From UHGV virus genome UHGV-0373029: a stretch of 10,027 nucleotides of DNA; one strand, 5' to 3'. The notes under the pieces were generated by a model that was not told the origin of the DNA, did no database searches, and worked only from the letters and a program-made list of their open reading frames with translations. Positions 9,325-10,027 of the stretch are shown here, piece after piece. Position numbers and translations under genes: made by a program. This DNA comes from a virus. Every line of letters begins with the position of its first letter. Position 1 is the first letter of the stretch.

Positions 9325-9536
9325 TAATAAGTCTCCTTCTTATTCGGATTCACTGAATGCTTTTGTAACGCCTTTCCAGTTCCAGCAGTCCTGTTTAATG
9401 TTGCCCTAGCATTCCTTTCAGCCTCTTCACTGAATGTTGTAACACCTTTTCTTGTCTTTGCAGACATTGAGCATTTTGCAAGAGCCTTATCTTCATCACT
9501 AGAAAGTTCCCTTACACCATTGGCGTTTGTAGTTGG
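9324..9536 (-). CDS. 3' fragment (C-terminal ~70 aa) of the upstream structural gene, truncated at the inverted-repeat junction
   Basis: Minus-strand frame open from 9536 to TAA at 9324-9326, encoding ...[67 protein letters not shown]. Residues up to ...ERNAR are identical to the plus-strand reading of 9903-10027. An in-frame TAG at 9537-9539 and loss of similarity at 9529 show the gene body is not contiguous here. Confidence 0.55.
9404..9528. repeat. Inverted repeat, left arm (perfect reverse complement of 9903-10027)
   Basis: Checked base by base: 9404+k pairs with 10027-k for k=0..124 with no mismatch; first mismatch at 9529 vs 9902. The outer boundary is set by the window end, so the true repeat may be longer. 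Confidence 0.95.
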
Positions 9537-10027
9537 CTATGAAGGAAGCTTATTATTAACTCGTCAGGGGCAATTAGTAGAAAACTTCATCGACACTCTG
9601 GAAAGCTGGCGTGACCAGAAGCAAATTATTTCGGTCATCTGTAAAGATGGTATTAAAATTGATGATTCCATTATTACAAGCTTTAAAGCCTCTAAAGATG
9701 TTGGTATTTCAAATGGTCTAAGAATCCAGCTAACTTTTCAGGAAATTAACTTCAAAGCTGTTGTAGGGCAAACTGATATTTCTGCTGCTACTGGAAAGAC
9801 CGCTACCACAAATGATGGTGGTGCTACCAGTAAAAAGAATACAGGGAATACTACAACAAGTTTAGGTAATGGTAAATTAAACTGCCAGTTACTATTTGAC
9901 CTAAACGCCAATGGTGTAAGGGAACTTTCTAGTGATGAAGATAAGGCTCTTGCAAAATGCTCAATGTCTGCAAAGACAAGAAAAGGTGTTACAACATTCA
10001 GTGAAGAGGCTGAAAGGAATGCTAGGG
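9535..10027 (+). CDS. Internal fragment of the same upstream structural gene (hub-associated/tail protein, unknown family), inverted relative to the operon; open at 3' end
   Basis: Plus frame 1 is open to the window end: [79 protein letters not shown]..., then a Ser/Thr/Gly/Asn-rich linker and ...[41 protein letters not shown]. The frame stays open back to 9331 with no ATG or GTG, and that upstream part reads like antisense gibberish, so the gene is broken at 9529. Confidence 0.5.
9903..10027. repeat. Inverted repeat, right arm (perfect reverse complement of 9404-9528); truncated by window end
   Basis: Same base-by-base comparison as the left arm. The arms are separated by a 374-bp unique segment (9529-9902). 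Confidence 0.95.

Follow-up and report, generated by a model that had tools for sequence, protein, structure and literature searches.

The DNA analysed here, referred to below as the window, is a stretch of 10,027 nucleotides from the virus genome UHGV-0373029. It covers the module of baseplate and tail-fibre genes in a Felixounavirus (Felix O1-like myovirus), and DNA searches returned hundreds of Felixounavirus records with 90-100% identity. Felixounavirus comprises the Felix O1-like phages of Escherichia and Salmonella. The large ORFs of the window all lie on the minus strand. As assigned by Pfam and PHROGs, the products of this module are a Pam3_gp18-like plug, a hub protein, a sheath-initiator or wedge protein, a Baseplate_J-like protein, and two fibre proteins with gp37 and Gp10_C domains. 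Several searches also included one or two Campylobacter-named records among their matches, and a 147-kb record named 'Staphylococcus phage SA1' (GU169904.1) showed a 97.5% match to the Felixounavirus thymidylate synthase region (window 1-197). Judged from these alignments, the SA1 record and the Campylobacter-named ones look like mixed or mislabelled entries.

A perfect inverted repeat is present at the right end of the window. In a repeat search over the whole window, positions 9404-9528 and 9903-10027 formed an inverted pair of 125 nt per arm, 100% complementary, with a spacer of 374 nt, which agrees with the exact reverse-complement arms around 374 bp that had been described from the letters before this analysis (hereafter, the sequence-only reading). 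The right arm terminates on the final base of the window. The runner-up inverted pair in the window was 29 nt long (76%), and perfect inverted pairs of 125 nt would be expected by chance approximately 1e-65 to 3e-65 times in 10 kb with the same composition. When the repeat stretch was folded as ssDNA, a single 125-bp stem was obtained at -192.7 kcal/mol (z = -24.6).

The gene broken at this repeat encodes the tail tube initiator, a 265-aa protein orthologous to Bas63 gp18 (PDB 9ndy). The native 265-aa protein matched PDB 9ndy_A, 'Tube initiator protein (gp018)', with E = 1e-163 over residues 1-265, and it also matched Pfam Dit_like PF21821 and PHROG 3721 (phrog_3721). Cryo-EM of Bas63 has placed gp18 as the head-proximal tube initiator of the baseplate hub (PMC12609058). 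The native protein of the window phage is alike to Bas63 gp18 end to end, and its gene lies between the tape measure and Pam3_gp18-like plug genes; the order of tape measure, tube initiator, and plug genes is common to all the Felixounavirus genomes examined. Judged by both full-length similarity and gene position, the product is the tail tube initiator. Unlike Bas63 gp18, however, the copy in the window is split across both strands and residues 1-73 are missing.

The native 3' end of the tube initiator gene occupies 9324-9528 on the minus strand and supplies residues 199-265 and the TAA stop in the correct orientation. The left arm of the repeat (9404-9528, minus strand) encodes approximately residues 199-239. 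This minus copy ends with ...NPNKKETY, its TAA stop and the ATG of the following gene overlap at 9324, and the segment 9324-9528 is contiguous with the downstream baseplate genes. The 374-nt spacer, or 'loop' (9529-9902), encodes residues 74-198 on the plus strand. It is followed by the right arm (9903-10027, plus strand), which is a mirrored second copy of approximately residues 199-239 and reaches the window end. The plus copy accordingly reads as residues 74-239, has no start codon and stays open to the window end. The window contains residues 199-265 of the protein on the minus strand and residues 74-239 on the plus strand, and residues 1-73 are absent. These translations bear out three statements of the sequence-only reading, namely that one C-terminal peptide is encoded on both strands, that the minus copy has a proper gene end, and that the plus copy is the middle of the gene with no start.

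The native arrangement was available from the same genotype. An exact look-up with the 789-aa tail fibre protein of the window retrieved an 86,631-bp ENA scaffold (L002) and a 42,712-bp Logan contig (L003), both from run SRR11412986. Both contigs had 0 mismatches to the window on either side of 9528/9529. In both of them, the tube initiator gene is intact on the operon strand between the tape measure and plug genes; in L002 it is colinear at 2991-3788. Compared with L002, the window divides exactly into four native-genome blocks, which are joined by three strand switches. Block A (window 1-197) corresponds to L002 13011-13207 in reverse complement with 2 mismatches, and block B (window 198-485) to L002 12724-13011 on the same strand with 0 mismatches. 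Block C (window 483-9528), which is closed by the native 3' end of the tube initiator gene, corresponds to L002 3584-12629 in reverse complement with 0 mismatches over 9046 nt, and block D (window 9527-10027) to L002 3208-3708 on the same strand with 0 mismatches.

The 374-nt 'loop' was 100% identical to L002 3210-3583, and is the native continuation after 9528 in reversed orientation. In the native order, position 9528 would be followed by the reverse complement of 9902 to 9529, then by the first 73 codons of the gene and by the tape measure gene. According to the sequence-only reading, everything from 9529 onward was a mirrored copy. The flipped orientation holds for this whole segment, but the duplication inside the window is confined to the 125-nt arm, and the loop is single-copy.

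The same organisation was found in the relatives. Salmonella phage SP3_SHan-2021 is 100% identical to window 8000-9528 on one strand, and window 9527-10027 maps to the same gene on its opposite strand with 99% identity; the gene concerned, SP3_120, is contiguous between the tape measure and plug genes. A further 12 contigs from ENA, Logan, and NCBI/GenBank, found via the plug and fibre proteins (10 metagenome, Logan, or GenBank contigs and 2 from a separate look-up), carried the tape measure, 265-aa, and 113-aa genes on one strand. Among the 19 loci compared, both arms mapped to a single locus wherever they matched, and a self inverted repeat of at least 40 nt was found in none. The sequence-only reading had placed the native gene on the minus strand with the operon and had proposed a comparison with related genomes as a check. 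A contiguous 265-aa ORF was found in L002, L003, and every relative examined, on the operon strand and directly downstream of the tape measure gene.

SP3_SHan-2021 was outside the 15 best-ranked records when the whole window was compared. It differs from the window at 5 positions in the 374 nt past 9528 (9711-9734 and 9590), and four of these positions fall within 16 nt. As far as these alignments tell, this pattern is local mosaicism typical of the genus.

If the repeat were a fixed, genuine inverted duplication in a viable variant, an intact tube initiator gene should be found elsewhere or past the window end, and the plus copy could run past 10027 to a natural stop. However, the plus copy is without codons 1-73 and the start, and the sequence upstream of it is the antisense of the arm. 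Furthermore, contigs of the same genotype (0 mismatches) contain the gene once, in its normal arrangement, and a second copy of the arm was present in 0 of the relatives examined. We therefore regard such a duplication as very improbable.

The junction at 9528/9529 was also searched for directly. None of 295 phage records covered 80% of window 8000-10027 in one place, and none of 215 covered 80% of window 9300-10027 in one place; every phage-record alignment ended at 9521-9528. The exact 39-mer across 9528/9529 was absent from viral_contigs, metagenome_contigs, and genome_contigs, and megablast of plasmids and E. coli genomes gave no junction-spanning match. Although truly present in the sequence of the window, the inverted repeat almost certainly does not belong to the genome of the phage.

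Perfect repeats that flank 374 nt within a virion gene at a sequence end formally resemble a programmed invertible segment (Gin/Cin/Hin-like, or a shufflon) or a terminal inverted repeat or hairpin genome end. The G segment of Mu (Gin) and the C segment of P1 (Cin) likewise have inverted repeats in a virion structural gene flanking a short segment. In contrast to these two systems, neither an invertase nor alternative coding ends nor a second native arm was found here, and the affected gene encodes a hub protein rather than a tail fibre. Ten window proteins (the 9 intact ORFs and the rejoined tube initiator fragment) were scanned, and no recombinase was detected by Pfam or PHROGs; three of the ten were without a Pfam match, and the Pfam and PHROGs matches that were found belonged to baseplate, tail-fibre, or other virion structural families. 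Moreover, flipping the segment gives no alternative C-terminus and only restores or breaks one gene, and the native genome (L002, L003, and all relatives) has a single arm. As for a genome terminus, the locus is internal, approximately 31 kb into the 86.6-kb scaffold L002. Four Felixounavirus records are reported with direct terminal repeats, and the locus lies 31-41 kb from the record start in them. The 374-nt spacer is non-palindromic, so that reading through a hairpin telomere does not account for the repeat. We rejected both a hairpin telomere and programmed inversion on this evidence, and consider a programmed segment or genome end of either type scarcely credible.

The repeat is not the only rearrangement in the window. 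The three strand switches are located at 197/198 (J1), 485/486 (J2), and 9528/9529 (J3). J1 has 0 nt of microhomology and spans 287 nt, J2 has 3 nt (AAA) and spans 382 nt, and J3 has 2 nt (TT, 9527-9528) and spans 374 nt, joining L002 3584 (minus) to L002 3210 (plus). All three lie within approximately 500 nt of a window end, with 9 kb of flawless native sequence between. The presence of junctions at both window ends suggests a contig-end effect rather than biology. A 2-nt microhomology is expected by chance at approximately 1 in 16, and J1 has none; the junction complementarity of 0, 3, and 2 nt is compatible with the chimera family discussed below and is also close to chance.

At the left end, block A (1-197, plus strand) contains the 3' end of the thymidylate synthase gene and a terminator hairpin in the native orientation. 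Block B (198-485, plus strand) is 288 nt of a gene which in relatives encodes a 123-aa 'holin'-annotated product, flipped in place. The native 94 nt of L002 12630-12723 are missing from the window at this end. The only two mismatches of the window to L002 are A to C at 100 and 135, both in block A. No phage record was identical to window 1-197 (best, 99.0%), and 0 of 286 phage records spanned window 100-600 in one piece. The terminator-like hairpin is found at window 155-186 (AAGGCTCC...GGAGCCTT), 11 nt from J1, and in relatives it sits between the convergent thymidylate synthase and 'holin'-annotated genes.

J1 and J2 share the native coordinate L002 13011 to the base, and this pattern resembles the outcome of one coordinated event on one molecule more than that of two independent chimeric reads. 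A random fragment end at native position 13011 is possible. A physical genome end or double-strand break at 13011 was also considered; the four Felixounavirus records reported with direct terminal repeats have this region 31-41 kb away from their start, which gives a genome terminus no support. A restriction-ligation origin was considered as well. A HindIII site is present at J2 (485) and another 17 nt from J3 (9546), but the window has six HindIII sites and the partner breakpoints are not HindIII sites; the proximity was judged to be a coincidence.

The inverted repeat is very probably a strand-switch (fold-back) junction foreign to the native genome, which entered the assembly at one end of a contig. 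Both sides of J3 map to one locus, on opposite strands and 374 nt apart, as is characteristic of inverted chimeras. A fold-back artefact had been the favoured explanation in the sequence-only reading. It is strengthened here because the junction is absent elsewhere, a second strand-switch rearrangement of similar kind exists at the left end, and the same genotype is intact in other contigs. At least one chimeric molecule or read would have joined the minus strand at L002 3584 to the plus strand 374 nt away, at TT. Such a joint may form when a displaced or free 3' end re-primes on a nearby same-sense strand, as is typical of phi29/MDA or of end-repair strand-split artefacts, and chimeric reads would then have extended the contig at both ends.

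The length of the arm may have a further explanation in the assembly. In a de Bruijn graph, the junction would turn the contig end into a hairpin loop. The path would exit the main edge via chimeric k-mers, run back through the native neighbouring segment in the wrong orientation, and halt on re-entering the reverse complement of its own last k-mer, with the result that the arm would be exactly k nt. A halt of this kind would explain both why the repeat reaches the last base and why the arm has an odd length (125), in the range of large k. This account of the arm length would depend on the contig ending at 10027, whereas the chimera reading would not.

Chimeras of this geometry have been well described. 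With MDA, 85% of chimeras were inverted, and most of them joined segments less than 10 kb apart, with priming at 2 nt or more of complementarity (Lasken & Stockwell 2007, PMC1855051); chimeric distances peaked at 250-300 nt (Tu et al. 2015, PMC4595205). Like J3, the inverted chimeras in these two studies involve one locus, opposite strands, a few hundred nt, and short microhomology. They show inverted sequence with a gap or a duplication, and multi-level chimeras were also described. Such chimeras are also known to come from a second source, the strand-split artefact reads produced during library preparation (Haile et al. 2019, PMC6344851). Two differences should be mentioned. The microhomology of MDA chimeras is 2-21 nt, whereas the values here (0, 2, and 3 nt) are at the short end, and strand-split reads were described for damaged FFPE DNA. 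The junction geometry is consistent with inverted chimeras produced during amplification or library preparation, or with an assembly-graph hairpin loop. The feature is almost certainly an artefact of a type already described, and the phage genus concerned is well known.

The junctions may also be read as the product of real rearranged molecules in the sample, i.e., minority defective Felixounavirus genomes or replication by-products arising from in vivo template switching. Here the assembler would have picked up the rearranged molecules beside the intact genome, and these would have formed by snap-back or fold-back replication at microhomologies. In vivo template switching fits the geometry (opposite strands, a few hundred nt, and 0-3 nt of microhomology) equally well, yet in vitro processes yield the same junction features at percent-level frequencies. 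The common coordinate 13011 of J1 and J2 is expected from one double switch on one molecule, but a doubly switched molecule with this shared coordinate can equally arise in vitro. If the window comes from a short-read assembly, several overlapping reads must carry both of the A to C differences near J1, and several reads sharing them would speak for a molecule that was real or had been amplified, and against random errors in the reads. Against the in vivo origin, the rearrangements break an essential protein of the baseplate hub and the 'holin'-annotated gene, and such genomes could not propagate alone. Neither the 295 isolate genomes nor the 12 additional public contigs showed anything comparable, and the confinement of all three switches to the ends of the window also counts against it. 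A longer imperfect inverted homology at J3, which might have driven switching in vivo, was looked for and rejected, with only 2 nt in register. Consequently, we consider it unlikely that real rearranged molecules were the source, and still more doubtful that the junctions record in vivo fold-back template switching in Felixounavirus replication, with defective genomes co-existing with intact phage.

With a fold-back chimera at the contig end as the preferred explanation, the value of the observation lies in quality control rather than biology, as the contig misrepresents a well-known phage. It shows reading frames that are absent from the phage itself. The plus-strand frame 9331-10027 is open for 232 codons across J3, its first part being antisense to the arm and the remainder reading the flipped gene, and the left-end rearrangement creates a false 154-aa fusion ORF at 202-666 (plus strand). 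Either of them could be reported as a novel protein by a gene caller, the former as a partial protein with a novel N-terminus. On look-up, the artefactual ORFs 202-666 (plus) and 9324-9467 (minus) had no recorded instance. A perfect inverted repeat can serve as a simple flag for artefacts of this type when it reaches the end of a contig and both of its arms fall on one locus in close relatives. Were the junctions real, they would be evidence of template switching during the replication of a virulent myovirus, which would be of modest interest.

The middle of the tube initiator gene also has counterparts in bacterial chromosomes. A chromosomal stretch with 80-99% DNA identity to it, in most cases 90-95%, was present in 403 of 5426 complete E. 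coli genomes. The ten best listed matches had 92.0-94.5% identity over 348 nt (window 9527-9874). In the inspected record NZ_CP127255.1 (L005 4001-4348), the match lies inside a gene for a 257-aa 'phage baseplate protein' and adjoins tape measure and 'recombinase family protein' genes, near yecD and aspS. This similarity suggests that Felixounavirus and a prophage, or the remnant of one, have recently exchanged DNA.
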